Both the position numbers and the translations under genes were made by a program. From positions 1 to 64,000 of the forward strand of contig CAWGJO010000037.1 in the NCBI GenBank assembly GCA_963822945.1: a stretch of DNA of 64,000 nt, given 5' to 3'. This DNA is from an uncultured Gemmatimonadaceae bacterium (GTDB lineage: Bacteria; Gemmatimonadota; Gemmatimonadetes; Gemmatimonadales; Gemmatimonadaceae). The notes beneath the pieces were generated by a model. It was not told the origin of the DNA and searched no databases. It was given only the letters and a program-made list of their open reading frames with translations. Positions 40,509-63,150 of this stretch are shown here, piece after piece (within the stretch, counting starts at the first letter, position 1; each line of letters starts with the position of its first letter).

Positions 40509-41309
40509 ATGAAGGCGCCCGCCGCCATTGCCGTCCTGTTGCTCGTCTGCGCCGCCGCCCCGGCCACTGCGCAGGGTACCAAGCCCCGTCCCGAAGACAC
40601 CGAGGTCTGGAAGCCCGTCCCCCGCGTCGTCACGCCGGGCCGCACGGATCTCGATGCGCCATCCGACGCAGTCGTCCTCTTCAACGGCCACGACGAGAGC
40701 CAGTGGGTGGATGTGCGCGATCACTCGCCCGCCAAGTGGGACGTGCACGACGGCATCCTCACGGTGAACAAGCACGCCGGGAACATCGAGACCAAGCGCT
40801 CGTTCACCAACTACCAGTTGCACCTCGAGTGGCGTGTGCCCGAGGGGATCACCGGTTCCGGGCAGGCGCGCGGCAACAGCGGTGTCTTTCTCGCGTCCAC
40901 CGGGCCGGGCGACGACGGCTACGAGATCCAGGTGCTCGACTCGTACGACAACGCCACGTACGTGAACGGACAGGCGGCGGCGATCTACAAACAGTACCCG
41001 CCGCTGGTGAACGCCATGCGCAAGCCGGGCCAGTGGAACGTGTACGACATCATCTGGACGGCGCCCACGTTCAAGGCCGACGGCTCGCTGGACACGCCGG
41101 CGTACGTGACCGCGTTCCAGAACGGCGTGCTGGTGCAGGACCACGTGCCCCTGTTGGGACCCACGCTCTACATCGGCAAGCCGTCGTACAAGGCGCACGG
41201 GCCGGAACCAATCAAGCTGCAGGCGCACGGCGATCCGAGCGCGCCGATCAGCTTCCGCAACATCTGGGTGCGGCCGCTGCCCGACAAACCGCAGGTGCAC
41301 GTGCCGTAG
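40509..41309 (+). CDS. DUF1080 (3-keto-disaccharide hydrolase family) protein
   Basis: PSDAVVLFNG, LHLEW, GNSGVF, YEIQVLDS, LQAHG..ISFRNIW. Confidence 0.9.
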   Translation: MKAPAAIAVLLLVCAAAPATAQGTKPRPEDTEVWKPVPRVVTPGRTDLDAPSDAVVLFNGHDESQWVDVRDHSPAKWDVHDGILTVNKHAGNIETKRSFTNYQLHLEWRVPEGITGSGQARGNSGVFLASTGPGDDGYEIQVLDSYDNATYVNGQAAAIYKQYPPLVNAMRKPGQWNVYDIIWTAPTFKADGSLDTPAYVTAFQNGVLVQDHVPLLGPTLYIGKPSYKAHGPEPIKLQAHGDPSAPISFRNIWVRPLPDKPQVHVP

Positions 41310-45210: not shown

Positions 45211-45236
45211 GCTCCCTCTTCCGAGAATTGGCCCCA

Positions 45237-45264
45237 GTACGGGCGCGATCGCGCGGCAGTTTCA
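45237..45264 (-). promoter_or_regulatory. Putative ECF-type promoter
   Basis: Minus strand TGAAAC-N17-CGTA about 27 bp before the permease ATG. Confidence 0.35.
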
Positions 45265-45408
45265 GGCCGGGCTGGTGCCGGATCGCGGGGTCCGGGATTG
45301 CCGGGCTGGCGGGCGCTCCCGAGTGTCCGACAGCACTCGGGAGCGAAAGGTTTGATTCCGGGGCGGTGCGGTGGTCGTCGGCTGGTCCGGGGCCTGGCCG
45401 CCCCAATT

Positions 45409-47913
45409 TCACTCAGCGCCGAGCGTACTCGCCGGATCGACATGAGCGGCTCGGGCCGCAGGCGCATATGCGGCGACGCCGGCGGTAACGACCAGCGCCA
45501 CGACCACGCCGGCGAACGTCAGCGGATCCGTCGTGCGCACCTCGTACAGCACCGACCCGAGTAACCGCGTTCCTGCGTAAGAGAGCGCCGTCCCGACAAC
45601 GATGCCGAGTGCCAGGATATACGCCGCCTGCCGCACGATCAGCGCCCGCACCTCGGCCGGCGTCGCGCCGAGCGCGATTCGGATGGCGATCTCTCGCCGA
45701 CGCTCGCGGACCGCCGCGGCGAGCAGTCCGTACAGGCCGACGGCCGAGAGGAACAGGGCCGCACCGGCCAGGGCAACGAGGGTGTCCGCCAGAAAGCGTG
45801 GCCTGGAGAGCTGTTGGCCGACCAGCGCACCGCCGGTGGTGACGTCGCGGATACCGAACGACGGGTTGCTATGGCGGAGAATACGCTTGAGCGGTGCGAG
45901 CGCGACGCTCGGGTCGTCGCCGCTGGTCCGTACGGCGAGGAACATCGGGGCCGCTGCCGTTTGCCGCACGGGCACATAGACCGTGGGCTCGGGCGGGGAC
46001 GTGACGCCTCGGAAGCGCGTGTTCGCCGCCATGCCGATCACGGTGCGCCAGGGTTGGGTGCTGTCCGACGGATTGAGCCGCACCCGGAGCCCGATCGGGT
46101 CGCGTCCCGGCCACTCTCTCCGGGCGAATGCCTCGTTGACCACGGCCACGGCCGGCGCGCCGGCGCGATCACCCGCCGCAAAATCCCGCCCTCGGAGCAG
46201 GGCAATGCCCATGGTGCGGAAGTGCGAAGGGAGCCCTGCCTGCCACGCGACGCGCGGCAATTGCGACGTGTCGCGAGCCGTCGCGCCACTGGCGACAACC
46301 GGCAGCTCGTATGCCGTGCCGGACAGCGGCCGCACGAGGAGTGTGGTCACGCCGACGATCCCGTGCACCTTCGGAAGTTGGGACGACATGGCGTCGAGCA
46401 CGGCGTCGTACCGGGCTGCGCCCAGCGCCCAGCTCTGCGTATGCGCGTCGAAGGGCGTCATGTCCTCGAGCCCGACAACGAGCAGCGACTGCGGCGTGAA
46501 CCCAAGGTCAACCCGCTGGAGGCGGTCGAGGCTTCGCGCCAGGAGGCCGGCGCCCGTGAGCACGACGACGGCCAGCGCGACCTGCGCGGCGACGATCAGC
46601 CGCCGACCGCGCTCCTCGTGGCGGCGGCCGCTGATCCTGCTGCCCCCGGTGCGGAGGCCGACCTCGGGATCCGACCGCGTGGCAAGGAGCGCGGGGGCGA
46701 AACCGAACGCGAGCACGGCGGCGAGCGTGAGCGCCACGGCGAAGGCGAGCACCGGAAAGTCGAGGCGGATGCCTGCGGGAGGGAGGAGCCCCGATGGTGC
46801 TACGCGTGGCGCGATTCGCAGTAGTGCGACCGCCATCCACACGCCCAGCGCTCCCGCGCTGGCGCCGAGCAGCGCGTGTTCGGTGAGCAATTGGCGGATG
46901 AGCCGGCCGCGGCCGGCCCCCAGCGCCGACCGGAGGGCCAACTCGGAACGCCGCGCGAGGCCGCGCGTCACGAGCAAACCGGCGGCGTTGGTGAGCGCGA
47001 TCAACAGCACGAGCGCCACCGCAAGCGAGAGAATCACGAGCGCGGGTCGCACATTCCCGACCACGCGTTCCGCGAACAACTGGGCGTGCGCGACGCGAGC
47101 AGTGGAGTCACCGAGCGATCGGGCCGGATAGCGCTCGAGGTAGCTCGCGAATGCGGCACGTGCCTGCGCGAGTGTGACGCCCGGGCGCAGTCGAGCCACG
47201 ACTTGCGTGGGGAACCCGGCGTCGGGGCCGGGCGCGCCGGGGAACATGCGCTCAACCGGAGCCATGGCCACCCAGACGTCGGTTCCAGCGGGATAGTCGA
47301 AGCCCGCCGGCGCGACGCCGACGATGGTCTCCGGTCCGTTGATCATGGCAATGGACGTTCCGATCACCGAGCTGTCGCCGCCGAAGTCGCGTTGCCACGC
47401 ACGGTAGCTGAGGACCACGGATGGGCCTGCCCCCGGCGCATCGTCGGCCGAACTCAGCAGACGGCCGGCGGCGGGGAGCGCGCCGAGGACGGGGAAGAAC
47501 TCGCCGCCGACGAACATCGCCGTCACCGGGAACAGCCGATCGCCGAAGCGCGCCGCGAACGGCACCGTTCCCTGCAGGGCGATGGGAGCGACTCGCGCGA
47601 ACGCATGGCTCGATTCGGCGAGGCTGGCCACTCCGGAACTCGGCAGGCCGATGGGCGTGTTGCCCCGGGCGGCGTTGGTGGCCGAGAGGACGACGACTCG
47701 GTTCTGATCGCGAATGGGGAGCGGGCGTAGGAGGACCGCATCGATGACACCGAACGCAGCGGTCGTGGCGCCGATCCCGATGGCCAGCGTCAGCAGCAGG
47801 ACGAGGGTGAGGCCGCGGCTCTTGAGCAGTATCCGGACGCCGAAGAGAAGATCGTGGCGCAGTGCATCGAAGTGTCGCGGGCGGTTCTGCGGCGTAGCGG
47901 AATTCTTGGGCAT
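45409..47913 (-). CDS. ADOP-family duplicated ABC permease
   Basis: DLLFGVRILLK, VLLRPLP, EIAIRIALGA, VDPASTLGAE. Confidence 0.9.
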   Translation of the reverse strand: MPKNSATPQNRPRHFDALRHDLLFGVRILLKSRGLTLVLLLTLAIGIGATTAAFGVIDAVLLRPLPIRDQNRVVVLSATNAARGNTPIGLPSSGVASLAESSHAFARVAPIALQGTVPFAARFGDRLFPVTAMFVGGEFFPVLGALPAAGRLLSSADDAPGAGPSVVLSYRAWQRDFGGDSSVIGTSIAMINGPETIVGVAPAGFDYPAGTDVWVAMAPVERMFPGAPGPDAGFPTQVVARLRPGVTLAQARAAFASYLERYPARSLGDSTARVAHAQLFAERVVGNVRPALVILSLAVALVLLIALTNAAGLLVTRGLARRSELALRSALGAGRGRLIRQLLTEHALLGASAGALGVWMAVALLRIAPRVAPSGLLPPAGIRLDFPVLAFAVALTLAAVLAFGFAPALLATRSDPEVGLRTGGSRISGRRHEERGRRLIVAAQVALAVVVLTGAGLLARSLDRLQRVDLGFTPQSLLVVGLEDMTPFDAHTQSWALGAARYDAVLDAMSSQLPKVHGIVGVTTLLVRPLSGTAYELPVVASGATARDTSQLPRVAWQAGLPSHFRTMGIALLRGRDFAAGDRAGAPAVAVVNEAFARREWPGRDPIGLRVRLNPSDSTQPWRTVIGMAANTRFRGVTSPPEPTVYVPVRQTAAAPMFLAVRTSGDDPSVALAPLKRILRHSNPSFGIRDVTTGGALVGQQLSRPRFLADTLVALAGAALFLSAVGLYGLLAAAVRERRREIAIRIALGATPAEVRALIVRQAAYILALGIVVGTALSYAGTRLLGSVLYEVRTTDPLTFAGVVVALVVTAGVAAYAPAARAAHVDPASTLGAE

Positions 47914-48069
47914 GGGCCATCCCCACGTGAAGGACGACTGTGCACAAAATCGTATGCGCTGCACAGCATACGAGTTCGCCGCGTCGATCGCCAGGTGCGG
48001 CTGGAGTCGCGGGCCGGCCCTCGATTGTCGCGGAAGTGGCAGCGTGGGTTACAACGAGCCCAGTTGTTC

Positions 48070-48116
48070 GTTATAGAAGACGACTGTATGTTATAAAAGA
48101 CGTTCGTCTCTTATAC
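48070..48116. promoter_or_regulatory. Three-box operator upstream of the HTH gene
   Basis: GTTATAGAAGACG (48070), GTTATAAAAGACG (48090) and inverted CGTCTCTTATAC (48105). Confidence 0.65.
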
Positions 48117-48141
48117 AACACACTCCGTCCAACCATCACCC

Positions 48142-49131
48142 ATGCGACCACCCGCCAAGCACCAGAGCGCCCGGCGCTATCCGCTGAACGCCATGCTCGG
48201 CACTGAAGCGAACGTCCGTCTGCTCCGGGTGCTGTTCGCGGCCGGGGATGAGCCGCTCGGGGCCGGTGAGTTGGCCCGCCGAGCGGCGCTCGGCCGCACG
48301 TCCATCTACAAGGCATTGCGCCATCTGGAGGAGGCCGGGATCGTGAGCCACGTCGGCACCGGGGCCCAGCGTCAGATCCGCATACGGGACGAGCACCCGT
48401 TGGTGCCGGTGCTGCATGCGCTGTTCGAGGGGGAGGCGTCGGTGTTCGACGGATTACTCGCCGCGCTACGTGAGGCCGCGGCGAAGGTCCCCGACGCTAC
48501 GTCGGTCTGGCTCGAAGGGCCGGTCACCACCGGCACGGATGCTCCGGATGAACTGGTGACGTGCACCGTGCTCGGAACGTCCGATGCCCTGCCACGCCTC
48601 ACGGCCGGACTCCGGGACGCCTTCGCTCCGATCGAGCGTGCCTTCGACGTGACGATCTCCATCCATGGCACGACGCGCGCGGAGTTGGCAATGCGATCGG
48701 GGGGCGGTGTGCGCGCGCTAAGCGACGCCATTCTGCTCGCGGGCACGCCGCCCGCGGCGTTTCACGCCGCGACCCGATCGCAGCCTGCAAAGCGCCGGCA
48801 CGTCGGGGCACACAGTGACCTCGACACGCAGGCCGTGGCACTCGGTGCCGCGCTCGCGAAGCTGATCAGGCGCGATCCCGGCCTCGTCGATCGTGCGCGG
48901 CGCGACGTCGAGCGCCGCATGCGGCGTGCGTCACCGCGCGAGCGGCACGAACTCGAGGAGTGGTCCCAGTTGCTCCGTAACACGTCTCCACACCGCCTTC
49001 GCGCGCTGCTCATCGATCCGGGGGAACGCATGACGCGACTGCGGCAGACGCTGCCGTTCATGCGCGTGCTTGCAGCAGACGAGCGCGCGAGTCTGGCGAA
49101 GCTGACGCGAGAGGTGAGGGGCAAGGAATGA
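48142..49131 (+). CDS. wHTH + degenerate nucleotidyltransferase-like + helical domain protein, putative antitoxin
   Basis: ELARRAALGRTSIYKALRHLEEAGIV HTH; SVWLEGPVTTG resembles a decayed MNT motif; C-terminal RLRQTLPF. Confidence 0.6.
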   Translation: MRPPAKHQSARRYPLNAMLGTEANVRLLRVLFAAGDEPLGAGELARRAALGRTSIYKALRHLEEAGIVSHVGTGAQRQIRIRDEHPLVPVLHALFEGEASVFDGLLAALREAAAKVPDATSVWLEGPVTTGTDAPDELVTCTVLGTSDALPRLTAGLRDAFAPIERAFDVTISIHGTTRAELAMRSGGGVRALSDAILLAGTPPAAFHAATRSQPAKRRHVGAHSDLDTQAVALGAALAKLIRRDPGLVDRARRDVERRMRRASPRERHELEEWSQLLRNTSPHRLRALLIDPGERMTRLRQTLPFMRVLAADERASLAKLTREVRGKE

Positions 49132-49682
49132 CGCGAGATCAGTTGGAGCACGCGATCCGCGCGGCCTGCGACGTCGCCGAAGACACCGAAGTGTTCGTCT
49201 TCGGTTCACAGGCGATCCTGGGGCAGTATCCCGATGCGCCGGAGGCGCTGCGGCAGTCCGCGGAGGCGGACATCGCGCCGGCGCATGCCGCCGGCAACGT
49301 CGATCTGATCGATGCGATGCTCGGCATGGAGTCCGCATTTCACGCGCAGTTCGGCTTCTACGTGCACGGCGTGCCGATCCAGGCAGCGGTACTTCCCGCT
49401 GGTTGGGAGCGGCGAGCCGTGGTAGTGCAGAACGCGAACACGCGTCACCTGATCGGGCGCTGTGTCGAAGCCCATGATCTTGCGGCTAGCAAGCTGGTCG
49501 CATTTCGGGAAAAGGACCGGGATTTCGTCCGGGTGCTGCTCGGCGAGGGGTTGGTTCAGGCGCGAAAGCTCAGGTTGCGGATCACGCAGCTTCCGGTAGT
49601 GCCGGGACGGTTTGGTGAGGAACAACGGGCGCACCTGATGGAATGGCTGCGGGGCACGAGCGGCGAACCGGGGCGGGGCTGA
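49128..49682 (+). CDS. Nucleotidyltransferase-fold protein (DUF6036-like), putative toxin
   Basis: MTRDQLEHAIRAA, FGSQAIL, SAEADI, DLAASKL..REKD; ATGA overlap with the HTH gene. Confidence 0.7.
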   Translation: MTRDQLEHAIRAACDVAEDTEVFVFGSQAILGQYPDAPEALRQSAEADIAPAHAAGNVDLIDAMLGMESAFHAQFGFYVHGVPIQAAVLPAGWERRAVVVQNANTRHLIGRCVEAHDLAASKLVAFREKDRDFVRVLLGEGLVQARKLRLRITQLPVVPGRFGEEQRAHLMEWLRGTSGEPGRG

Positions 49683-49888
49683 CGGGCACCGGGGCGTTCT
49701 CCTCGACCACGGCACCGTGCATCATGAACTTGGGCGGTAGCCTGCCAACTGCGCTCGGCGCGGCGAAGGCACGTCTGCCGCACGCGGCATTAGCGGTCCG
49801 CCACGGCTCCGTTTGTCATCAGCGCAAGTCGAGGCCGACCGGTGGTTCCGCTTCGCCGACCCGTCACTCCCACCGCGCCAACCATATC

Positions 49889-51571
49889 TCAGCGGCGCAC
49901 GAGCACCCCCGCATCGTGCACGATGCGGCCGCCGAGCACGGTGAGGACGCTGGTGATGCGGGGGAGCTGGGCGGCCGGGACAGTGAGCGGGTCCGCCGAA
50001 AGCACCGCGAGGTCGGCCAGCATGCCGGGGGCGAGCATGCCGCGCTCGGCCTCGCGTCCCTCCACATAGGCGCCGCCACGCGTATAGGCGAGGAGCGCCT
50101 GTTCGCGTGTGAGCGCCTGATCCGGACGGAACGGGTCGCGGATGGCGATCATCATGTTGAGCCACGGGCTCGCCTCGGGGCCGCCATTCGTGTCGGAGCC
50201 AAGCGCGTGGAGGACTCCGGCGTTCAGCAGGTTGCGCAGCGGCTGATAGACGGCACGCCGTTCGGGTCCCAACCGCACTTCCAATGTGCTGTCGGCGGTG
50301 TGCAATGGGTTCTGGGTCACGACCACCCCCAGCCGTTTCGCGATCGGGATGAGGTCGGGCATGAGCCCGTCGCCATGCTCCATGCGCACCCGCTTGGCGC
50401 GCCACCGTTCGGCGGGGGCCAGCGCCTGCATCGTATGCAGCACCAGCGCGGCGGTGGAGTCGCCGGCCACGTGCAGCGCCACCGACACGTTGGAATCGAG
50501 CACATGGCGCAGGATGCGCCGGATGGCGTCGGGCGAAAAGTTGACGGTGCCATACCAGCCCGGGGTCTGCGCGTACGGAGCGCGCAGGGCCGCGTTTCGA
50601 TCGGGCTGCGTGCCGTCGAGGATCCACTTCATGCCGGCCACCCGCACGAGCGGCGACGTGGGCCGCGGCCAGGGATGCGCCCACGCTTCCGCGACGTCCT
50701 TCTTCGGAAGGTACAGGCGGTAGAGGGTCCACCGCAGGGGCGCGTTGGCGGCGTCGAGCGCCGCGACCAGCCGGTCGAACGCGAGGGGCTCGCCCATGGT
50801 GTGCACGCTCGTGACGCCCCACGCCGACTCCTGCTCGGCGTACCGGCGGAGCGCCGCCACCGCCGAATCCTGCGGCAGGTTCTGCCGCAAGTGCGCCGCG
50901 GCATTCCAGATTGAGTATTCGTACAGGCGGCCGTTGAGGCGGCCGGTGGCGGGATCCCGTCCCAACCTTCCCCCGTCGGGCGCGACCGAGCGGTCGCTGA
51001 ACCCTGCTGCGCGCAGCGCCGCCGAGTTCATGATCACGCCGTGTCCGGTGAAGTACGCGAGCTCGACCGGGTTGTTCGGTGCAACGCGATCGAGCCAACT
51101 GCGATCGATGGCCGAATCGTCCAGCACGAGGGGGCCGATCTCTGCCGCAATGAACTGCCCGGGGGCGGCGCGGCCGACGGCAGCGCGAAGGGCGGCCTCC
51201 AGTTGTTGCGGGTTCGGTCCGGGGTCCGGCGGGCCTTGGGGCGGGAGCGTGAGTACGCCCGGAATGGGGATTGCCGGATGCATGTGTGCGTCGGTGAGCC
51301 CGGGAACGACGAACCGCCCGCCGAGCGCGATCCGGCGGGTGTGCGGGCCGGCCAGCCGTTCGATCGTCGAGTCCGCGCCGACCGCTTCGATGCGGTCGCC
51401 GCGAATCGCCACGGCCTGGGCCCAGGGATGTGTGGAGTCCGCGGTGAACACGCGGCCGCCGGTGAGCAGAAGGTCCGCCGGCTGCTGCGCACCGGCAATG
51501 GCGGGAGTGGATGCCGCGAGGGCAATCAGGGTGAGAACCACCGGGAGTGCAGAACGCGGGAACCGGGCCAT
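49889..51571 (-). CDS. Secreted amidohydrolase-3 (YtcJ-like)
   Basis: PGLTDAHMH, KWILDG, HVAGD, RMEHG, LGSD, GMLADLAVLS. Confidence 0.9.
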   Translation of the reverse strand: MARFPRSALPVVLTLIALAASTPAIAGAQQPADLLLTGGRVFTADSTHPWAQAVAIRGDRIEAVGADSTIERLAGPHTRRIALGGRFVVPGLTDAHMHPAIPIPGVLTLPPQGPPDPGPNPQQLEAALRAAVGRAAPGQFIAAEIGPLVLDDSAIDRSWLDRVAPNNPVELAYFTGHGVIMNSAALRAAGFSDRSVAPDGGRLGRDPATGRLNGRLYEYSIWNAAAHLRQNLPQDSAVAALRRYAEQESAWGVTSVHTMGEPLAFDRLVAALDAANAPLRWTLYRLYLPKKDVAEAWAHPWPRPTSPLVRVAGMKWILDGTQPDRNAALRAPYAQTPGWYGTVNFSPDAIRRILRHVLDSNVSVALHVAGDSTAALVLHTMQALAPAERWRAKRVRMEHGDGLMPDLIPIAKRLGVVVTQNPLHTADSTLEVRLGPERRAVYQPLRNLLNAGVLHALGSDTNGGPEASPWLNMMIAIRDPFRPDQALTREQALLAYTRGGAYVEGREAERGMLAPGMLADLAVLSADPLTVPAAQLPRITSVLTVLGGRIVHDAGVLVRR

Positions 51572-51654: not shown

Positions 51655-51770
51655 GCGGAGAAACGGCGCGAGCCGCGCACCCTTGCCGGCAATCGTGCCG
51701 CGCGCCTGAAACCGTGGCTCGGTCACTTCCCACGCGGCCTTCAGACATGCACACGTCCCCGGCCCGAGGG
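51655..51770 (-). pseudogene. queG: queG 3' fragment, decayed
   Basis: Translates ..DVC..LKAAWEVTEPRFQARGTIAGKGARLA; aligns with the 53230-53465 copy (shared CGCGCCTGAA). Confidence 0.55.
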
Positions 51771-51845: not shown

Positions 51846-52355
51846 GTGCAGACACCGGGAGCCGAGAGCGAGTTCACCACCTTGCTGGACGCCCACAAGG
51901 GGATCCTCTACAAGGTGGGGAACGCGTATGCCACCAACGCGGAGGACCGCGCCGATCTGATGCAGGAGATCGCCGCGCAGTGGTGGCGCTCGTTTCCGCG
52001 CTACGACCGCCGGTTTCGCTTCTCTACATGGGCCTACCGCATCGCACTCAACGTGGGGATCTCGTTCTGCCGGCGCGAACGCCGAAGGGAGCGGACCTAC
52101 GTCGAGGCCGGCGACTCGGTGCTCGAAATCGTGGGGGATGATCCCCGAGTCTCTGCAGACGACGGTCGGGTGCGGGCATTGCACGGGTTCATAGCCACGC
52201 TGCCACCACTCGACCGGGCGCTCATTCTCCTGTATCTCGACGGCCATCGGTATGACGAGATCGCCGAGGTGCTCGGGATTTCCGTGAGCAACGTTGGCAC
52301 ACGCTTCGGGCGCATCAAACAGAGACTTCGCGGCGAGTTCTCCGCGGCAACTTGA
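51846..52355 (+). CDS. ECF RNA polymerase sigma factor
   Basis: DLMQEI, FSTWAYRIALNV, LYLDG..YDEIAEVLGIS.SNVGT. Confidence 0.9.
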   Translation: MQTPGAESEFTTLLDAHKGILYKVGNAYATNAEDRADLMQEIAAQWWRSFPRYDRRFRFSTWAYRIALNVGISFCRRERRRERTYVEAGDSVLEIVGDDPRVSADDGRVRALHGFIATLPPLDRALILLYLDGHRYDEIAEVLGISVSNVGTRFGRIKQRLRGEFSAAT

Positions 52356-53076
52356 ATGGGAGACGACATGGAACTGGACGACTTGAAGCGAAGGTGGGAG
52401 GAACAGGACCGGAAGCTGCAGGCGTCGCTGAGAATTCAGCGACTGAGTCTGCGCGAACTCGGCCGGGCCGAGGCGGCGATGGGGCGTCTGACACTCGGGC
52501 TCGAATTCGAAGTCGCGCTCGCGACGCTGTTCGCCGTCGCGCTCGGGTCCTTTGCGGCGAGCCACGTCGCCCCGCTCCGCGTATTCGCCTCCTCGATGGT
52601 GGTGGACCTCTACGTGCTCGCACTCGGCGCACTCGCGGCGCGGCAGATCTTCGCCATCCGCAGGCTCGACTGGTCGCGGCCCGTGACCGCCATACAGACC
52701 AGGCTGGAGTCGTTGCGGCTGGAACGGGCCAGAACCGCGTTGGCGGCCGTGCTGGTGGGAACCCTCCTCTGGATTCCGGCCGTCGCGGTCGTGGTGGCGG
52801 CGGTTGCCGGGGTGGACCTCTATGCCCGCGTCTCGCCGGCTTGGCTGGCGGCGAACTTTGCCTTCGCAGCCGGAGCGATCGTGGCGGTTCTATGGTGGGC
52901 CCGGCGCCGAGCGGCAAGGGGAGCGACGATGAACGGGTGGCTGGTGGCCGCGCTGAGCGGCACCGAGCCTGCGGTCGGCCCTCACCGTGCTGGCCGAGCT
53001 CCGGGAATTCGAAGGAACGAGCGGTGCACCGGGCACGGACGCCAGCGCCGACGCCGAGGGATGGGGGGAACCGTGA
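52356..53076 (+). CDS. Membrane protein, putative anti-sigma partner (frameshift near 52965)
   Basis: MELDDLKRRW, several transmembrane segments; alternative frame ends SLRSALTVLAELREFE.. Confidence 0.65.
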
Positions 53077-53229
53077 TCGCCAAGCGGTGGGCGCGGGACC
53101 ATCGGTGGCAAGCGATGCCGCGCTCAGCGGGCCCGCGGTGATGATCGAGCTTCAACTGGGGCGGTTCTGAAGCATTGGCCGCTGGGGGGACTCGCGAGCG
53201 AATGGTCCCGCGTGCGCGGCGCCATGCGT

Positions 53230-53465
53230 ACCCGATCGAGGCGTTTCGCATGAGGCCCGCCAGCATCGCCCGCTTCATCGCCGAGGCTTTGAACGCGGCG
53301 CGGAACTCGTTTTCGTTCATTGCGAGGATCTCAGTCGCGAGCGCCTTCGCGTACTTCTCCGTGATCACCGGCCGCGCCTGAATCGTAGCGTCCCGCAGGT
53401 CCCGCGTCCCGCGCGACTCCAGGTTCTACCGGCACACCTCCTGGGACGTGTGTCGACAGACCTGC
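53230..53465 (-). pseudogene. queG: queG 3' fragment (longest copy)
   Basis: QEVCR*N..IQARPVITEKYAKALATEILAMNENEFRAAFKASAMKRAMLAGLMRNA resembles the QueG CQEVCPWN...F...FKGS.MKR....L.RNA region. Confidence 0.75.
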
Positions 53466-53700
53466 ATTGCGATCGCGTTGGAGACGGGTGGGCGAACCAT
53501 CGCCAGGAGAGGGAGCTAGTGCGGCATCGCTGCAGAAGCCTTGCGTCCGCAGGGCGGCAGTGTGTGAGATTGCTGATGCGACGTGGGTATTGCCTCGCGC
53601 CGCCAGACAACTTGACGTCGGGAGCCAGCCGCTGATAGACTCGCTCCGTGGCTTCACGCAGCCGCATGAATCCGGCGACGACACCCATTCGCGATCACCG

Positions 53701-56106
53701 ATGACCCTCTTTGGAGAGGCGGTCTGGACGCTTCGGTCGCTCCGGCGCAATCTGACCTTCGCCGTAACGTTCGTCGCGGTGTTCGCCATCGGGCTCGGCG
53801 CCGGTACCGCCGTGGTCGCTGCCACCCGGGCGATCTATGGCGAGCGGCTGCCGGCACCGGCGCGTTGACGCTGGTCCGGATCTACACCGGGAATGCCGGC
53901 GCACCTGCCGCCAGCCCGGAGCGATTCGGCCGTAGCTCGATGCCGGAGATTCGCGCGTACGCCGAGGACAGCGCCGTGTTCCGTGCGGTCATCGCCACGA
54001 ACAACTTCTCGGCGACGGTGGGCGTCGGCGAACGGCGGCTGGCCGCTACGGGCTCCCTGGTGAGCGGCAACCACTTCTCCGTGCTCGGCCAGCGCGCGCA
54101 GCTCGGCCGCCTGATCGACCCCGACGACGATGCGGCGCGCGGGCGCGCCACCGTCGTGGTGCTGAGCGATGCGTTCTGGCACGCCTATTTCGGAGGACGC
54201 CGCAGCGCGGTCGGCGCCGTACTGCGGGTGAACGGATACCCGTTCACCGTGGTCGGCGTGGCGGCGCCGGACTTCCGCGGGACGGCGTTCGACTACACGC
54301 CCGGGTTCTGGGTCCCCATTGCCGCGCAGTCGGAGGCGTACGGCTCGCCCTGGGTGGTCGATTATCCCGATGCCTGGATGTTCGATACCTTCGCGCTGCT
54401 CCAACCGGGGGTCACACCCGTGCGCGCGGACGGGCACTGCAATCGCTGAAGCGGGGGCTCCACGCGCGGGCGACGACTGGTATGACCAGCGCGTCGCCAC
54501 GGTGCGATCAGGCCTCGACCTCGCTTGGCGCCTTCGACCGGCTGCGCCCACTCGTCGACCGGGTCAGCTGGCTTGTCGGCGCCGTCGCCATGCTTCTCAT
54601 TCTCATCGTGACAGCGAACCTGGCCATGCTTCTCGCCCGGCGCTTCGCACAGCACCAGCAGATCGCATCCAACTCGGCACTTGCGGCGACACACGAGCAA
54701 CTAGTGCGACAGCGGCGATCGAGACACTAGTCCTCACGTTCCCCGCCGTGGGCGCCGGGATCGTCGTCGCCCTGAGGCTCTCCGCGGTGTGGCCGCGCTC
54801 TTCCTCATGGCTTCCCCGGCCAGTCGGTTGTCGGCACCGCTGGCCGCCGGGCGGCCGCGACCGGGCTGGTGAGCGCGGCGTAGATGGCATCGCCTTAGCG
54901 TGGCGTGCGCCGCCCCGCTCACGGCCTGGCGCGCGGCCGGATGGGAGCACGGGTCGCGCGGCCGGCAGGTGCGTCACAGCTTCATGATCGCGCAGGTGGC
55001 CCTGGCGTTCGTGGTCGTACTCGTCGCGGCGTTCCTGCAACGGAGCGCCCACGCGCTCGCATCGGTGATCCGGGATCGACGTCGCAGACGTCCTACGGGC
55101 CGCGTCTACCTCTGGAACCGGGCGGGGTTCGACGCGGGCTCGATCGCTCGGTACGACGGAGTAGTGCGGCGACTGCGTCTGGATTCCCAGGTGGTGGACG
55201 CCTCCTCGGCTGCGCGCAAGTCCTTCGGGCTATGAAAACCGAACGGCGATGAGCGTACCGGGGCGTGCGCGGATTCGGGACAGGACAGCGTCGTCGCCTC
55301 GGCCACTGTCGGCATCCCAATACTCGCCACGCTGGGCGTTCCGATTCTCGAGGGGCGGGATTCGACCTGCGGGACACGGTCGGAGCGCCAGGGCAATCGT
55401 CGTCGATCGGGCGGCCGCACGGAACTCTGGTCAGGCGCAAGCGCGCTCGGTCAGGTGGTCCTCCATGCCGGCCAGCGCTTTGCAGTCGTCGGTGTCGTCG
55501 GCGACGCCGCCGCGCAAGACTGGACGCGCCTCACGTGCCGCGAGTCTACTTCGCGACTCCAGGCCCAGGGCTTCGCACCGCCGCACCAGAAGCTGTTCAT
55601 TCGGGTTCGCGGTCGGCGGACGCGGCCGGATCGCGCGCACGATCCAGCGCATCGCCCCGGGCCCCGCACGCGTCGAGCTGCGGACGTGGGGTCGATCCGC
55701 GACGATCAGTTCGGCGCGCTCGATGCGCTCGCGATCTCGTGGCGTCGATCGCGATCGTGGAGACGCTGTTGGCAGCGCTTGGCCTGGCCGGGCTCATGGC
55801 CTGTCTCGTCGGCCAGCGACTGCGCGAGACTGCCATCCGCCTGACGCTCGGCACCAAGCGGCGCTCGATTTTCTGGCTGCTGCTGCGCGATGCCGCGCGC
55901 TCAGTGCTCGCCGGAGCTGTGCTCGGCGCATTACTCTGGGGTCGTACGGCACGACTGGTCGCTTAGTTCCTCGCCCGAGCAAAGGGGTCGATCGATCCCG
56001 TGAGCGTCACCGCGTCGCTGGTGACGGTCATGACGGCCACGCTGGGGCTCGCAGCGCTGCCCTGCCTGAGCGGATCGCGACGGGCGCCCGTGTACCGGGG
56101 GAGTGA
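53701..56106 (+). pseudogene. ADOP-family permease, heavily disrupted
   Basis: LRSLRRNLTF, VSGNHFSVLG, ANLAMLLARR, AQVALAFV, ETAIRLTLG, DPVS scattered over all frames with stops. Confidence 0.7.
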
Positions 56107-56213
56107 GGAGGGGCGATCAATGCTGGACAGTGGGTCCACGTGCTTCGCTCCCACGGTTCGAAGGGAGCGAATGAGGCTTGCCATATGGCGAACCCCATGG
56201 GTACGCTTGGGGC

Positions 56214-56953
56214 ATGCGCAACTTCGCGTACAATCTGGTTCGGCGCGCGGCGGTCGTGGTCGCCGCGGTGCTGTGCCTGGGCGCTCCCAGCGTCGCCGCG
56301 CAGCAAGCTCCCGTGCGAGGTCGCGTCGTCGACTCCGCGGGCACTGCGGTGTCGCAGGCCGATGTCATTCTGCTGCCCGACAGCCTCCACACCACAACCG
56401 ATGGCACCGGCCGTTTCTCGTTCGGGCCGCTGGCCGCCGGCAAGCACATTCTGCGCGTGCGGCGTTTGGGGTTCGCCCCGGCATTCGTCCCGTTCATTGC
56501 GCCGCTGAACAGTGCCCTGGTCGTCGAACTGCCGCCGCTCCCGTAACGCTGCAGACGATCGTGACCAACGCGCTTTCAGGACGCCTGCCTCGCGTGATAC
56601 AGCGCGAAGAGGAACACCTGGGTGTGCAGCTCTATGGGCCGCGCCTGGACAGCCTGTTGCACCGCCACGAGGGCATGACCGTCGGGGAACTGCTGCCCTG
56701 GGATCGCGCTGTGGCGCTCAAGCTGATGTCATCCAGAGGGTGCCAAAAGGCGATCTATGTGGACGGCGACTCGGCCCGAGCGCCGATCCAATTCTACATC
56801 AGCAAGGATGAGATCGGGGCCATCGAGGTGTTCAATTCGCCCGACTTCATCCACGAGCCGTTCCTACCCCCGGATACCAAGGCCGGAAAGTGCGTGCAAC
56901 TCATCCTGATCTGGTCCAAGTACTACCAACAGCAGCCGTGGGGCGGTAAATGA
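56214..56953 (+). CDS. Secreted carboxypeptidase-regulatory-like domain protein (frameshift near 56540)
   Basis: Signal peptide, VRGRVVDSAG, TTDGTGRF, LRVRRLGF; C-terminal YVDG..IGAIEVF..C..ILIWSK. Confidence 0.65.
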
Positions 56954-56989
56954 ACAGCGCCGGACGGCCGTCGCGGTTCCGCTGAAGTC

Positions 56990-57095
56990 GTGCCGGCACA
57001 CCTCCCGGGAGGTGTGCCGACACACTGTATTGAGATCTCGTTGGCGAGCGGGCGGGAACTCCTGCGAGGACAAGCTGTTGGCGCGGAATCAAGGC
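56990..57095 (-). pseudogene. queG: queG-derived fragments including a perfect 26-bp palindrome
   Basis: CGGCACACCTCCCGGGAGGTGTGCCG (56994-57019; reads TSREVCR) next to VLAGVPARS/LANEI. Confidence 0.5.
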
Positions 57096-57245
57096 GATGC
57101 CGACCCGAAGGAACGGCTTGACGGTCCCCGATGGCTTTAGCAAAATGGAATCCGGTGCCGCGGAGCAGGGCACGATGAACTCCGCCGGAGTTCGTGCGCC
57201 GTCGGATCGCGATTGGCGCGAAGGCCGCAGCCTGGGGGAATCGCC

Positions 57246-59635
57246 GTGAAGGCCCTGGTGGACCGTTCCACGTTGCGCGCGCTCGCCCGCACACCGGGCT
57301 TCACGATCATGGTCATCGTGTCGCTGGCGCTGGCCGTGGGCCTCACGACCACCACCTACGGAATCGTTGACGCCGTGATGCATCCGTACGTGCCGTACCG
57401 TGCTCCCGAGCAGTTGTATGCGGTGCAGACCGATGCCTTCGACGTTTCGGATGACCTCCTGGCCGACATGGCGCGGTCACTGCGTGCCCAGCGTCAGCTC
57501 TACTCGGACTTCGCGATGGCCCTGGCGGCGCGGGCGCATCCGACGATCGGCGTTGCCGGACAGACGCTCGACGTCTTTCCCCAGGAAGCCAGCGTCAACT
57601 TCTTCGACGTGTTGGGTGTTCGCATGTTCGCTGGCCGCGGGTTCCGGCCGGAAGATCGCGACGCGCCCGACCGCGCGGGGGTGGTGGTGAGCTACCGGTT
57701 CTGGCGACGGTACCTGCACGGCGCCATGCCGCTGAGTTCGGTGCCCGTGATGGTGGACGGCCAGGCCTACACCGTGATCGGGGTGCTCGGGCCCGATGTG
57801 CGGCGCGGCGACGTGTTCCTCGCCATGCCGCGCGCCACCGAAGAGGGATGGTTCTTCGGCGCCGGGCCCGTCCTCAGGGTGCGGTCCGGCGTGACCGAAG
57901 CGCAGCTGACCGCGGCCCTCCGCCTGGCTGCGCGCCAACCTGAGCCGGAAGTACGGTCCCCAGCACGTGATTCGCTATGAGGTGCGCTCACTGGCCGGCG
58001 CCCCGCGGCAATTGCAACCCTTCCAATTCGCACTCTCCGGCGCCGCGCTGATCATTCTCCTGATCGCGTGCGCCAACGTCGCCAACCTGCTCATCGTCCG
58101 CGTCGTCACGCGGAGCGTGAAATTGCCGTGCGAATGGCGCTCGGCGCGTCGCGGCGTGACGTGGGGCGGTTCGTGTTCGGCGAAGCCATCGTGCTCGCCG
58201 TCGCGGGTGGTGCACTCGGGCTGCTGCTCGCGGCGTGGAGCATCCATCTGATCGAGTACCGGTTCACGATGGATGTGAGCCAGATCGGCCTCCTGCAGCC
58301 GCATTTCGACTGGCGGGTGGCAGCGGCATCTGCGCTGGCCAGCGCGCTCGTGGTGGTGCTCATCGCCTGGGGCGCGACGGTCCGCGCACGCGCCACGAAC
58401 GTGAACGAGGCGATGAAGGACGGCGCCGGCACGACGACGCAGCCGGCTCATCGCTCGCACGGATTGCTCGCGGTCACCGAGGTCGCCCTGTCCCTGGTGG
58501 TACTGATGGGGGCCGGCCTCTTGTTGCGCGCGAGTCAGGCCATCCGGCATTTCGACTTCGGCTACGACCCGCGGCACATAGTCTCGACGACGGTGGCGCG
58601 GCCGCGACGGGATTCGACCACGAGTCTCGGCGAGGAATTCTATGCCGACGTGCGCAACGGGATCCGCGCACTCCCCGGCGTGCGGGGCGTGGCCACGACC
58701 TACGAGGAAACGGTGCCGGCCAGCGCCGTGACCTCGGACGTGGGCGGTGCATCGCCGCGCGTGGCGCGCATCCCCACCTACTCGGTGGTCTCTCCGAGTT
58801 TTTCCATCTCGTCGGGATTGCGATCAAACAGGGGCGTGACTTCGAGCCCGGCGACGTGGACAGCGCCGGCGCGGCGATCGTGGACGAGACACTCGCCCGG
58901 ATGCTCTGGCCACACGAATCGCCGCTGCAACATCTGGTCAAGCTCGGTGGGCCGCGTTCCAACGGGCCCTGGGTCCGCGTGGTCGGCGTCGTCCCGCCCA
59001 TACGCTTCTCGTTCACGCCCGGCCGCGACCCCGACCAGGCAATGGCAGTGCATCCGAACGTCTGGGTAGCCAGGGCCGGGAGCGCGCACGGCGAGTACGA
59101 CGGACGGAAGCTGTTCATCCGTACCCGAGCAGACGAGGCCAGCGCCCTCGCCGGCGTGTCGCGGTATCTGCAGACCATCGAGCCGTGGAACCGACCCGTG
59201 TACCGGCCCATCCTCGAGCAATTCGACCAGGAGATGCAGCTCAGCCAATTTCTCGCGTCGCTGTTCGGGGCGCTCGCCGGCTTTGCCCTCCTTCTCTCGA
59301 CGGTCGGGTTGTACAGTCTGCTGAGCTACATCGTGGCGCGGCGCGGGCGCGAATTCGCCATGCGAGCCGCGCTCGGCGCCCGCTCGCGCGACCTGGTGCG
59401 GGTGGTCGTTCGCGATGCGATGCTGCTGATCCTGGGGGGTACTGCCGTCGGTGCGTTCGGCGCCATGTGGACCGGCCGAGTGATGGAGCACCTGCTGTTC
59501 ACGGTGAACCCGCTCGACGCACTCACCCTCGTGGCGGCCGAAGCCGTGCTCATCGTGATCTCGCTCGCCGCCGTCATCGGGCCGGCGTACCGGGCCACGC
59601 GGGCGGATCCCGTGGAACTCCTGCGAGCGACGTAA
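57246..59635 (+). CDS. ADOP-family permease (frameshifts near 57945, 58115 and 58800)
   Basis: LRALARTPGF, LLIACANVANLL, EIAVRMALGA, EFAMRAALGA, ADPVELLRAT. Confidence 0.82.
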
Positions 59636-59659
59636 AGGCGTGATGGCGCCGGTACCAGG

Positions 59660-59865
59660 GCTATCGGCTTCGCCCGCTTCATCGCCGAGCCTTTGAACGC
59701 GGCGCGAAAGTCGGCTTCTCTCATGGCGAGGGTCTCCGTCGCCGGTGTCTCACCGCGTCCTTCTCGCCGAGTGCCGCCCGCGCCTCGACCCTCGGCTCCC
59801 TCACATCCCTTGCGACTCCAGGATTCTACCGGCACGCGTCCGGGGAGGTGTGCCGACAAACCACA
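59660..59865 (-). pseudogene. queG: queG 3' fragment
   Basis: GEKDA/ATETLAMREADFRAAFKGSAMKRAK plus palindromic Cys-motif remnant at 59829-59856. Confidence 0.7.
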
Positions 59866-59960
59866 TCGAAATCGAACCGAGCACCGGACGCCGAGCCACC
59901 TCCGCCACATGAACTGAATCGACCAATCGCCCGTAACACGGCAACATTCCCGGCCGCGCG

Positions 59961-62600
59961 TTACCCCGCGTCGCCCTGAATGCTCCGTACCACGTCCTGG
60001 CGCAGCATGCGGCGGATCGGGAGCGCCATTCCGAACCCCATCACGACCAGCAGAGTGACCGCGACCACTCCCACCGGCACGAGCTGCATGGCGAACATCG
60101 GCTTTCCCGCGAACGGGTTCCGCAGGTAAGTGTCAGCGATGTAAACGGCGCGCGAGCCGAGGAGCAGCCCTCCAAGCGTCGCCAACAAGGCGACAGTGCC
60201 AAGGTCGGCGACGAGCGCACGGACCAGGCGGCGCGGAGTGGCGCCGAGAGCAACGCGGATGCCGAACTCCCGCGCCCGGAGCGCCACCGAGTAGGACGTA
60301 AGCCCATACACGCCTGCCACGGCGAGCACGAACGAGAGCGCCGCCATGAACGCGAAGAAGTAGGTCCGAGACCGTGCCTGCGCGCTCCAGCGGTCGACGA
60401 CGGCGGCGACGGGCTCCAGATCGCTCACGACGATGCGCGGGTCGATGCGCCCTACGGCTTCTTTCACGGCGCGGAGCCCGGTTGCCGGGTCTCCGACCGT
60501 TCGAATGCGGACTTCAGTCGTCGTGTGGCCGAGCGGTAGACTCTGTACGGTGTAGATCGGCGGCGTCAGGGGGTCGAAGTTCGGCATGTCGCGCACATCG
60601 GGTACGACACCGACCACGGTGAACCAGGTGACGCGGGCGGAGCCGTCGAGCGCGAGTCCGACTCGCCGGCCGATGGGAGCCCGATCGCCAAAGGTCCAGT
60701 GGGCCGTCGTCTTGGAGAGCACGATCACAGGGGCGTGCGCTTCGGCCTCCGCCGCCGTTGGAAGCCGGCCCAGGATCGGTTTGAGGCCCAGCGTCTTGAA
60801 GTAGCTCAGCGAAACGTCCTTCCAGGCCTCGGCGGCGTACAGGTGTGGCCGCCAATCCGGGTAGAAGCGAGCAGCGCCCGGTATGGGCGTCCGCACCACA
60901 GCCGCGGACTGAATGCCGGGGATGCCTTCAACCGCCTGGACGAGCGACATGGCGGTCTCCTGCGATGCGACGGTGTCGGGGACGCTCAGCCGGGCCGTGA
61001 GGACTTGTGAATAGTCGAATCCCGGTCCGGCGCCCTGTGCATCCCGATTGGCGACCACCAGGGCCGCCAGCATGGCCATACACGCCAGCGACAGTCCGAG
61101 CTGAAGCGCGACGAGACCGCGTCGGTTGCGGATCTCTCGCGAACCGCCCGTTGATGAAGATGCGCCGGACAGCACGGCTCGAAGGTCGGCGCGCGCGAGA
61201 TCGATGGCGGGCGCAAGGCCAAACAGCAGGCCGACGAGGACGGTTCCGGCAACGCCGAACGCCACCGTTGGCCAGTTCATCCGCGGCACCACCAGCATGA
61301 AATCCCGTCCGAACCAGAGACGGCGCGCGTCGAGGAGCCACTTTGCGATGACGATGGCAGCGGCGCCGCCGGCGGCCGCCATGAGCGCCGCCTCGATGGT
61401 GAGCATGCCTACGATGCGTCGCCGGGACGCGCCCAGGGCTACGCGTACCGCGATCTCCTCTCGGCGCCGCATGCCACGCGCGAGCAGCATCGTCGTGAAG
61501 TTCACGGCACCGAGCAGGATGATTACGATTGCCGCCGCAATCCAGAGGCGAATCAGGTTGCGGTAAGGGGACGTGACATCCCGGGCCAGCGGCAAGAGAT
61601 CCGCCACCGGGGTTTTGGCCAACCCGGCGACGATGCCCGCCTGATGGAATGCGACCGACACGTCGGCCTGGGCGCGGGCCATCGGGACGCCCGGCCGGAG
61701 CCGGGCGATCACAACGTTATTCTGCCATTTCCTGTCGGCGGGTGGCGTGGCCAGCCGCCGAAGGCTGTCGTGACCCAACGGGAGCCAAATGTCGGTGCCG
61801 AGTGGCAGGCTGAACCCCTGCGGCATTACCCCAACGATCGTCGCGTGCTGTCCATCGACAGGCACCGTGGTGCCAATCACGTCCGATCGTCCACCGAACT
61901 CGGAATGCCAGATGTCGTAGGAAAGAATGACGGGCGGCACGGTTTCATGCGCATCGTCTTCCGTAAACGCGCGCCCGAGAAGCGGGCGCACACCGAGAAC
62001 GTCGAAATAGTTCGACGTCACCGGAACGGACGATACGCGGATCGCGTAGCCGCTGGGGCCGAGGTCCGAGCCGGGTCCGTACTCCTGCGCGACCGCGACG
62101 CCGGAGAAGGAGCGCACTCGCTGCGCGGCCAGCGCATCACGCGCGGGAAGCACGGAGAAGAGCGAATTCATCTGCGGGTCGCGCTCGCGGACGATGACCA
62201 GCTCTGCCTGGCTGGGAAAGGGTAGCGGACGCAGAAACAGCGCGACCACCATGCTGAACACGGCGGTGGCGAGCGCCATGCCAAGCGCGAGCGAAAGCGA
62301 TGCGCCACCCACCGCTCCCGGGTGCCGCCGCAAGCGCCGCGCCGCGCTCGCCGCCTCGGTGAGTGACCGCTCGATCCACGGGAGTCCGCGCTGGTCGCGG
62401 TAGGCGTCGCGTGCTGCCTCGAGGCCGCCCGCGTGTACCATCGCGAGACGGCGGGCTTCGGATGGCGCCATTCCGCGGCGCACAAGCTCGTCGGTCTCCA
62501 GGGCGAGGTGCGCGGCGAACTCTTCGTTCATGTCGCCGTCGCGATGCGCCCGGCGGAAGAATCCGCCGACCCGGACAATGATTTCCCGAACTTTGCTCAC
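59961..62600 (-). CDS. ADOP-family duplicated ABC permease
   Basis: EEFAAHL..RRGMAPSEARR, EIAVRVALGA, EFGIRVALGA; GTG start overlapping the PadR stop. Confidence 0.9.
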   Translation of the reverse strand: MSKVREIIVRVGGFFRRAHRDGDMNEEFAAHLALETDELVRRGMAPSEARRLAMVHAGGLEAARDAYRDQRGLPWIERSLTEAASAARRLRRHPGAVGGASLSLALGMALATAVFSMVVALFLRPLPFPSQAELVIVRERDPQMNSLFSVLPARDALAAQRVRSFSGVAVAQEYGPGSDLGPSGYAIRVSSVPVTSNYFDVLGVRPLLGRAFTEDDAHETVPPVILSYDIWHSEFGGRSDVIGTTVPVDGQHATIVGVMPQGFSLPLGTDIWLPLGHDSLRRLATPPADRKWQNNVVIARLRPGVPMARAQADVSVAFHQAGIVAGLAKTPVADLLPLARDVTSPYRNLIRLWIAAAIVIILLGAVNFTTMLLARGMRRREEIAVRVALGASRRRIVGMLTIEAALMAAAGGAAAIVIAKWLLDARRLWFGRDFMLVVPRMNWPTVAFGVAGTVLVGLLFGLAPAIDLARADLRAVLSGASSSTGGSREIRNRRGLVALQLGLSLACMAMLAALVVANRDAQGAGPGFDYSQVLTARLSVPDTVASQETAMSLVQAVEGIPGIQSAAVVRTPIPGAARFYPDWRPHLYAAEAWKDVSLSYFKTLGLKPILGRLPTAAEAEAHAPVIVLSKTTAHWTFGDRAPIGRRVGLALDGSARVTWFTVVGVVPDVRDMPNFDPLTPPIYTVQSLPLGHTTTEVRIRTVGDPATGLRAVKEAVGRIDPRIVVSDLEPVAAVVDRWSAQARSRTYFFAFMAALSFVLAVAGVYGLTSYSVALRAREFGIRVALGATPRRLVRALVADLGTVALLATLGGLLLGSRAVYIADTYLRNPFAGKPMFAMQLVPVGVVAVTLLVVMGFGMALPIRRMLRQDVVRSIQGDAG

Positions 62601-62941
62601 GGGGCGGCGGTCCGGGGGCCGAGGAACCAGGCCAGAATCTCCGTCGTGGCGTGCCACTGGCGGGCCTCGTGTGCGAGGTGTCGCCGCCCGGCGGCGGTGA
62701 GCGTGTAGAATTTGGCGCGCCGGTTGTTTTCCGACTGTCCCCAGGAGGACGTGACGAATCCCTGCTGTTCCAGCTTGAGCAGGGCGGGATAGAGCGTGCC
62801 GTAGTTGAGCGAGAGCCGGTCGCGGCTCGTCTCCTCGATGCGGCGCGCGATGCCGTAGCCGTGAAGCGGTCCGAGTACGTCGAGCGTGCGCAGCACCATG
62901 AGGGCGAGCGTACCCTGCCAGACGTCGAGTTGGGCGGGCAT
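62597..62941 (-). CDS. PadR-family regulator (acidobacterial type)
   Basis: QGTL, LHGYGIARRIE, GTLYPALLKLE, NNRRAKFY. Confidence 0.93.
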   Translation of the reverse strand: MPAQLDVWQGTLALMVLRTLDVLGPLHGYGIARRIEETSRDRLSLNYGTLYPALLKLEQQGFVTSSWGQSENNRRAKFYTLTAAGRRHLAHEARQWHATTEILAWFLGPRTAAP

Positions 62942-63029: not shown

Positions 63030-63150
63030 GTTTGTGTCACAAGGGCACCGTTGCGCCGGAGGCCCTTTACCTTCGCCCGCTTCATCGCCGAGCCTTTGAA
63101 CGCGGACCGGAATCGGCGGCGCCGCCGACCTCCGGCACGTGGTGTGGACC
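63030..63150 (-). pseudogene. queG: queG 3' fragment with internal deletion
   Basis: FRSAFKGSAMKRAKVKGLRRNGALV; 35 bp identical to the 59668-59702 copy. Confidence 0.7.

Follow-up and report, generated by a model that had tools for sequence, protein, structure and literature searches.

Palindromic sites in a queG 3' end array of a Gemmatimonadaceae genome as probable attR-type junctions of a large serine recombinase family

The DNA analyzed here is a 64,000-nucleotide stretch (the window; positions 1 to 64,000 of contig CAWGJO010000037.1, assembly GCA_963822945.1) of an uncultured Gemmatimonadaceae bacterium. It carries three copies of a 28-bp palindromic site in an array of displaced 3' ends of queG, a tRNA-modification gene whose product has a conserved Fe-S motif. 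We conclude that these palindromes are very probably the cores of attR-type attachment (att) junctions, in which the end of a mobile element is fused to a displaced queG 3' end, and that they are likely products of a large serine recombinase (LSR) that would cut at a central CA. The same arm terminates LSR-bearing islands in related genera, and the attP rebuilt from these islands is an inverted repeat around CA; the window sites are therefore read as attR-type junctions of cassettes that lack an integrase. The initial annotation of the window had suggested a crossover or att site, which is borne out, and the palindrome does mark a fixed breakpoint in queG.

The three 28-mers start at 53429, 56993, and 59829, and both their sequences and their coordinates agree letter for letter with those first reported. 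The same is true of the perfect 26-bp palindrome in the second copy (56994-57019), a type of repeat found seven times in the 3.97-Mb genome. A covariance model built, like the site profile, from 14 copies scored the three sites at E = 3e-24, 1e-20, and 2e-18, and the next-best match in the window, aside from reverse-strand echoes of the same sites, reached E = 0.026; chance occurrence of the three can thus be dismissed. Two degenerate copies had also been proposed. The one near 51749, which the model barely scored (E = 5.2), represents a decayed junction whose queG remnant (51668-51743) is in register, but near 63132 no site is recognizable and just a queG remnant (63071-63112) is left. For the statistics, junctions below 40 bits or close to contig ends were excluded, so that 75 junctions from the genus were kept, 73 of them unique. 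Among these 73, symmetry is highest with a 2-nt center (on average 8.18 matches over 11-bp arms, against 6.99 with a 6-nt spacer), and the layout is 13-2-13 around a central CA rather than the 11-6-11 first described.

Local homology to the intact queG starts at 53442 and 59841, in the middle of the palindrome and not at its beginning, where the fragments had been thought to start. The breakpoint itself is nevertheless constant: across most of the genus, the fragment starts fall at positions 236-238 of TIGR00276. The fragments read QEVC(R/P), but the Cys codon preceding the Gln in the proposed CQEVCP is absent from them. The non-queG half matches queG at just 3-4 of 13 positions and 10-11 of 40. 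In total, the conserved unit spans ~75-90 bp, as the non-queG arm runs ~45 bp past the palindrome. By these comparisons, the half after CA consists of queG codons (QEVCP) and the other half, the P arm, appears to be a mobile-element end. The site is palindromic because the P arm mirrors the P' arm, and P' must also encode QueG; reverse complementarity of the P arm to the QEVCP codons follows, and this is the palindrome first noticed.

The dinucleotide CA occupies the center of 66 of the 73 genus junctions, all 27 junctions from other genera, and 27 of the 32 native queG sites. In other genera the core was located by a pattern of our own, which recognized none in 7 of the 44 loci. At position -2, 97 of 100 junctions have C and the 32 native sites without exception have G, and from position +2 onwards the queG-side arm tracks the QueG codon variants QEVCP, QDVCP, QACCP, and QSCCP. 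The overlap shared by the partners is therefore CA, with at most one extra base. One junction in genome G006 combines the left arm of a cassette seen in G012 with the right arm of a cassette from the present genome (G000), which maps the exchange between -2 and +3. Comparison of junctions and native sites points to CA as their common central dinucleotide, as expected of LSR sites.

Two window sites have other centers. The perfect palindrome at 56993 results from a single ordinary A>G change at background rate: the central A is replaced by G in 5 of 73 junctions, compared with 3-4 of 73 at other A positions of the arm. An independent metagenome contig is identical to window positions 56880-57034, and the CG center is therefore real; in another metagenome contig, the cassette of this site is joined to a different outer arm. 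Mismatched centers are generally not religated by serine recombinases, and the sites with CG and CC centers are therefore probably locked. Among native sites, GA or GG replaces CA in five, all from this genus (G000, whose native site has GA, G001, G006, G008, and G012). Four of these five hosts have long arrays, but three are close relatives, and the association is a lead only.

In related genera, we selected 20 LSR loci by hand for likely queG linkage, a non-random sample obtained by crossing PF07508 matches with queG matches. At eight of them, from six genera, the LSR gene runs antisense through the replacement queG 3' end and reaches CA. These LSRs measure 710-750 residues up to the site (the L121 open reading frame (ORF) is partial) and contain Pfam Resolvase and Recombinase domains with conserved catalytic and Cys motifs. 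The layout at the eight loci is that of an LSR system, with resolvase, recombinase, and zinc-ribbon/coiled-coil domains beside attL. All top Foldseek matches of an LSR model were serine integrases, with a best E value of 8e-10 for a weak model (predicted local distance difference test score, pLDDT, 53; below 50 for residues 501-711). A sequence search of the PDB gave weak SPbeta integrase matches only (E = 0.001), and no relative was present in viral contigs. At eight further loci (L143, L166, L173, and L179-L183), N-terminally deleted LSR remnants sit on queG ends. A distant LSR in G078 (L118:5754-12038), with 32% identity to the queG family, is convergent with a 146-residue 5' copy of a gene whose full 771-residue version lies 3.5 kb beyond and which we take to be malic-enzyme-like; this LSR possibly represents a sister family with a different target.

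The attR arms of the LSR islands match the window arm position by position. Rebuilt from five islands, attP is a 46-bp inverted repeat around CA with ~22 bp per arm, its symmetry stopping near position 22. It pairs at 16-21 of the first 30 positions, against 7-15 for attB, and in G100 at 21 of the first 22. Large serine integrases use an attP of ~50 bp and a shorter, less symmetric attB, and mismatched central dinucleotides are generally not religated, according to PMC11722253. The rebuilt pair fits LSR sites as portrayed there and in PMC13739063.

The single intact queG of the genome lies at C31:17015-17941 (C denotes contigs, L fetched loci, and G genomes; the window is part of C37, and the G000 assembly is 88% complete). 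Behind it, about 20 co-oriented junctions, facing in the direction of queG, form an array of ~100 kb on contigs C31, C19, C37, C7, and C8, and 15 non-duplicate junctions score above 40 bits. Two inverted copies (C31:52681 and C31:54389) were omitted from the counts, since they lie within an inverted duplicate at a contig end that was treated as a likely assembly artefact. C19 overlaps the end of C37 at 99%, and C31 presumably joins C19. The genome-wide motif scan suggested earlier placed all profile matches above 16 bits on the array contigs and none in the rest of the genome. No switch in GC skew of the kind seen at a terminus coincides with the array. The five array contigs have ten ends, of which six lie within the 28-bp core, perhaps because cassette orders were mixed in the sampled population or because of assembly splitting. 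C7 is exactly one extra cassette, core to core, that the main array does not have, and C8 duplicates C31:24-33 kb in variant form; C7 was rejected as an excised circle because its two ends differ.

Of 41 related genomes, 15 gave matches to the junction model; within the genus, 12 of 16 did so. Across the family, at least two queG 3' matches are present in 75 of 401 Gemmatimonadaceae genomes, a tally counted by hand in which the recorded maximum per genome reads as at least 14. Several genomes of genus g20 (which includes G041, G332, G352, G387, and G401) have at least 14 such matches, so that long arrays occur there too. This genus also contains the LSR (G169 and G264), and would be a better place for studying live activity.

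We propose that a circular island, whose attP consists of the P arm, CA, and the P' arm, would integrate within the C-Q codons of the QueG Fe-S motif, restoring queG with its own 3' end and displacing the old end downstream. Islands would lose the LSR through deletion, with the cargo staying between sites. A later LSR island could excise together with a distal attR and take neighboring cassettes to a new host; its departure would regenerate attB, and repeated rounds of accretion could therefore build the array. As in known accretion arrays, the att sites are kept, no recombinase is encoded, and the units stand in tandem behind a restored target gene. Cassettes shared by G000 and G006 are 98-99% identical, compared with 90% for core DNA. 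A kinase cassette lies after a 14-kb block in G000 but before this block in G012, in contiguous DNA in both cases, and the PadR-permease cassette is first behind queG in G004 and deep in the array in G000. Identical cassettes occur with different neighbors, the switch being located inside the core. Finally, arrays are preceded by native queG ends of the B' type, as would be expected if a helper island came and left.

Several observations weigh against this mechanism. No member of the LSR family was found in G000 or 16 other genomes of the genus (17 in total), and the enzyme is therefore assigned from other genera; among serine recombinases in five genus genomes, there was one unrelated protein, in G011 only. 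Loss of the LSR from G000 is not proven, as the incomplete assembly also lacks xerC, which is present in five relatives. Neither an excised circle nor an informative joint was seen in four contig sets, which comprise contigs only. Order conflicts and high identity show movement, not the enzyme, and homologous recombination between repeats could contribute. A directionality factor was not identified; an ORF of 74-80 residues without a Pfam match precedes the LSR in the three loci scanned. In G255 the rebuilt attP and attB differ little (16 versus 15 pairs), and for G145 and G169 the attR chosen need not belong to the island. In addition, a tyrosine integrase abuts the site in two genus genomes.

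Alternatively, the sites may have been made by an LSR but now be dead scars, each cassette being a decayed island that once had its own LSR and has since undergone only deletion and ordinary gene transfer. The lack of an LSR in the 17 genus genomes fits this scenario, the truncated remnants reveal a route of decay, and coding-like variation of the arm (see below) could predate enzyme loss; moreover, the center is not visibly protected, with A>G as common there as at other A positions. Yet B'-type native ends imply that attB was regenerated, identical cassettes change neighbors inside the core, cassette orders conflict, and hosts that are 90% alike share cassettes with 98-99% identity; the contig ends inside the core, perhaps from mixed arrangements in the population, point the same way, and we consider purely dead sites rather unlikely. 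The initial annotation had compared the palindrome with tyrosine-recombinase cores such as dif. An 11-6-11 core of this kind would be used by XerC/D, as in pdif modules or integrative mobile elements exploiting Xer (IMEX), or by P0001, a tyrosine integrase (PF00589). Likeness to dif/Xer is confined to the 28-bp length and dyad symmetry, whereas the sequence differs, all sites are co-oriented, and the partners share the central 2 bp only, not a 6-bp spacer. Tyrosine recombinases that tolerate such heterology exist. However, a canonical dif-like site, found by a motif search, lies at C24:13820-13847, at a distance of 17.5 kb from xerD, and does not resemble the palindrome, whose identity with dif was rejected. 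P0001, which ends ~50 bp before the site in G012 and G002, was the first candidate for the enzyme and was dropped given its contexts: in G012 its island lies between tRNA-Leu and a duplicate of the tRNA 3' end, homologs from other genera lie at tRNA genes in two of four loci and at a queG site in none of the four, and only 2 of 15 genus genomes contain it. A metagenome scan for P0001 was without matches. With an LSR at the site in relatives, a tyrosine-recombinase core is highly unlikely.

The second proposal of the initial annotation, a queG quasi-palindrome perfected by template switching that promotes recombination, taken here as a fragile site giving rise to duplicated queG 3' ends, would account for the one perfect palindrome and for a drift of decayed queG-side arms toward the P mirror. 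At position 12, C>G makes up 26 of 29 changed arms, and at position 15, G>A makes up 25 of 38, partly from true P' arms; this directional drift may be due to shared ancestry, as several arms share other derived changes. In permutation tests, however, the arms did not covary, either within a site (p = 0.72, no more symmetric than shuffled arms) or between the two ends of one cassette (p = 0.53). QACCP and QSCCP sites have lost the palindrome and retain the left arm, and the conserved non-queG arm, a match to the ends of LSR islands, reaches 45 bp past the palindrome, which makes template switching as the origin extremely improbable. An integron-like platform with folded single-stranded cassette sites would explain many small co-oriented cassettes (median length ~3.3 kb over the 45 with both ends) without a recombinase of their own. 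Such a site should show arm covariation, which is missing, and the breakpoint lies inside queG, with a queG 3' copy in every unit. No tyrosine recombinase, IntI included, was found near the array in G000, where the 88% complete assembly contains only xerD and a distant phage-type integrase. A dispersed operator or repetitive extragenic palindrome (REP) is at odds with the restriction of the motif to the array, and we give this pair of explanations hardly any credence. The phage-type tyrosine integrase (L005:1947-3778, on G000:C6) is located beside tRNA-Gln and is unrelated to the array.

If the sites are LSR junctions, the P arm has a further predicted role. On the LSR strand it offers 25 codons followed by a stop, with the stop at codon +25 in 31 of the 75 genus junctions. 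In the LSR frame, the synonymous fraction of P arm changes is 0.50, compared with 0.16-0.39 in the five other frames; in both data sets this frame is highest of the six (0.50 and 0.55), followed by the same phase on the opposite strand (0.39 and 0.44). The P arm thus varies like coding sequence in the LSR frame, and it appears to encode a conserved tail of 25 residues. Among 52 LSR homologs, 27 terminate precisely at the crossover, 19 continue into queG-side sequence, 4 have a P-type tail, and 2 are without the motif, from which the LSR gene is seen to cross its own predicted att site. In the fetched islands, TGT before CA coincides with a stop at the crossover and TGC with read-through. The LSR would gain the tail only on the circle.

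This arrangement would allow the att site to serve as a protein switch and as a license for hitch-hikers. Integration would truncate the LSR through a TGA formed by the crossover dinucleotide and the host Cys codon, and excision would restore a Cys-containing 25-residue tail encoded by the P arm that closes the circle. As the closing P arm would encode the tail, cassettes without an integrase would be selected to provide passing helpers with a functional tail. Their queG-side arms would become P' mimics, so that the junctions would amount to attP-like sites of minimal satellites; in hosts with long arrays, mutation of CA in queG would lock entry. Taken as a whole, with truncation, cassette-supplied tail, P' mimics, and host lock, this remains a tentative proposal that we find possible but somewhat doubtful.

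By analogy, the system would work like the ssrA islands of Dehalococcoides and composites of staphylococcal cassette chromosome (SCC) elements, and the logic of such arrays is already known. It is set apart by a mid-gene Fe-S target, long antisense dual coding, and a crossover-made stop with a conserved tail. In Dehalococcoides, ssrA-specific genomic islands encode the serine recombinase DsiB, whose gene overlaps its own att site, and whether DsiB is complete only on the circle was left open by its authors (McMurdie et al, 2011; PMC3146451). In contrast to these islands, the target here is a protein-coding motif in the middle of a gene, the island supplies ~250-450 bp of queG that are also read antisense as the LSR end, and the stop is often at the crossover itself, with the conserved 25-residue tail encoded by the P arm. 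This makes the question of completeness on the circle testable. SCC elements insert at the 3' end of rlmH by means of CcrAB or CcrC and form composites with few elements (PMC13739063), whereas the present array has ~20 small cassettes, each with a long displaced gene end, and its recombinase is a single long protein with an antisense overlap with the target.

The queG LSR shares the catalytic, recombinase, and zinc-ribbon/coiled-coil layout of the SPbeta, phiC31, Bxb1, and LI integrases, but is 13-18% identical to them and has ~150-200 extra C-terminal residues antisense to queG, without a confident predicted structure. ICESt1/ICESt3-type elements use tyrosine integrases and move by conjugation. 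In accretion-mobilization of cis-mobilizable elements (CIMEs) of the ICESt1/ICESt3 type, decayed elements keep att sites, are without integration genes, stack in tandem, and can travel with a functional neighbor (PMC5704250). The same retention of att sites, loss of integration genes, and tandem stacking are found here, where co-excision is inferred only. No paper on queG as an integration target was found in a literature search that left subscription journals, bioRxiv supplements, and large att tables outside; in Durrant et al, the terms queG, epoxyqueuosine, and Gemmatimonad were absent from the supplements searched, and queG from the text. The analysis defines a serine-integrase family (52 protein clusters) with a putative att pair in the conserved queG Fe-S motif and a family-wide hot spot of gene capture behind queG in Gemmatimonadaceae. 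It also advises caution with 28-bp palindromes, since those read as 11-6-11 can be 13-2-13 serine sites.

Cargo of the array as a whole comprises PadR regulators with MacB/FtsX permeases, kinases, an extracytoplasmic function (ECF) sigma factor, Fic and AAA proteins, and an amidohydrolase; the features of the window are listed in Table 1.

Table 1. Junctions, queG remnants, and cargo in the window
Feature	Position	Strand	Remarks
3-keto-disaccharide hydrolase gene	40509..41309	+	near presumed distal boundary
Distal, older array part	42751..51571	.	amidohydrolase, helix-turn-helix (HTH) + DUF6036 nucleotidyltransferase pair, two permeases; no sites detected
Decayed junction	51668..51763	-	queG remnant 51668-51743 + residual queG-side arm; P arm lost
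Cargo: ECF sigma factor + membrane protein	51846..53141	+	anti-sigma candidate, judged by position
Displaced, decayed queG 3' end	53241..53441	-	stop + frameshift right after core
att junction core 13-2-13	53429..53456	-	CA (queG strand) 53442-53443; queG-derived arm 53429-53441; element (P) arm 53444-53456
25-codon frame in P arm, WDVCRQTCIAIALETGGRTIARRGS then stop	53442..53519	+	predicted detachable C-terminal recombinase tail
Outer element (P) arm, non-queG	53457..53509	-	same arm terminates LSR-bearing islands of other genera
Cargo: permease + secreted-protein gene, in pieces	53701..56953	+	frameshifts near 55.0-55.5 kb look like assembly errors
att junction core	56993..57020	-	center CA>CG at 57006-57007 gives perfect 26-bp palindrome; queG remnant nearly gone
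Outer P arm	57021..57072	-	carries single-base deletions
Cargo: MacB/FtsX permease, in pieces in assembly	57246..59635	+	
Displaced, decayed queG 3' end	59652..59841	-	alignment to intact queG
att junction core	59829..59856	-	center CA>CC at 59842-59843
Outer P arm, diverged	59857..59908	-	model match
Cargo: PadR regulator + MacB/FtsX permease	59961..62941	-	88% identical copy directly behind queG in G004
Short queG 3' remnant	63071..63112	-	adjoining site near 63132 unrecognizable

In genomes with few or zero sites, the 3-keto-disaccharide hydrolase gene is found a short distance behind queG. Within window positions 55067-55520 and 63665-63765, single-base indels recur identically in two to four independent runs, and for this reason several frameshifts in cargo genes are probably assembly errors rather than decay. 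The array also contains transposase genes at C31:34104-35234, C31:38075-38491, and C37:75094-76208, which are presumably IS110-like and IS3-like.

Cassettes of the queG type were also observed away from queG. In G012, three of them (L012:1161-14713 and L013; C18:129-159 kb) lie inside a tRNA-Leu island, where they directly follow the tyrosine integrase of this island; the left arm of the site concerned is similar to the native queG B arm. The same junction occurs in G002 behind an 89% identical integrase, with no tRNA within the part fetched. Cassettes may be ferried by this second mobile island, which may offer them a secondary landing site. In G006 (C8:29-71 kb; L075:13791-15119, L108, and L109), cassettes and a queG remnant are found far from queG among several IS91-type (Y2) transposase genes, a neighborhood that represents a possible second route of movement.

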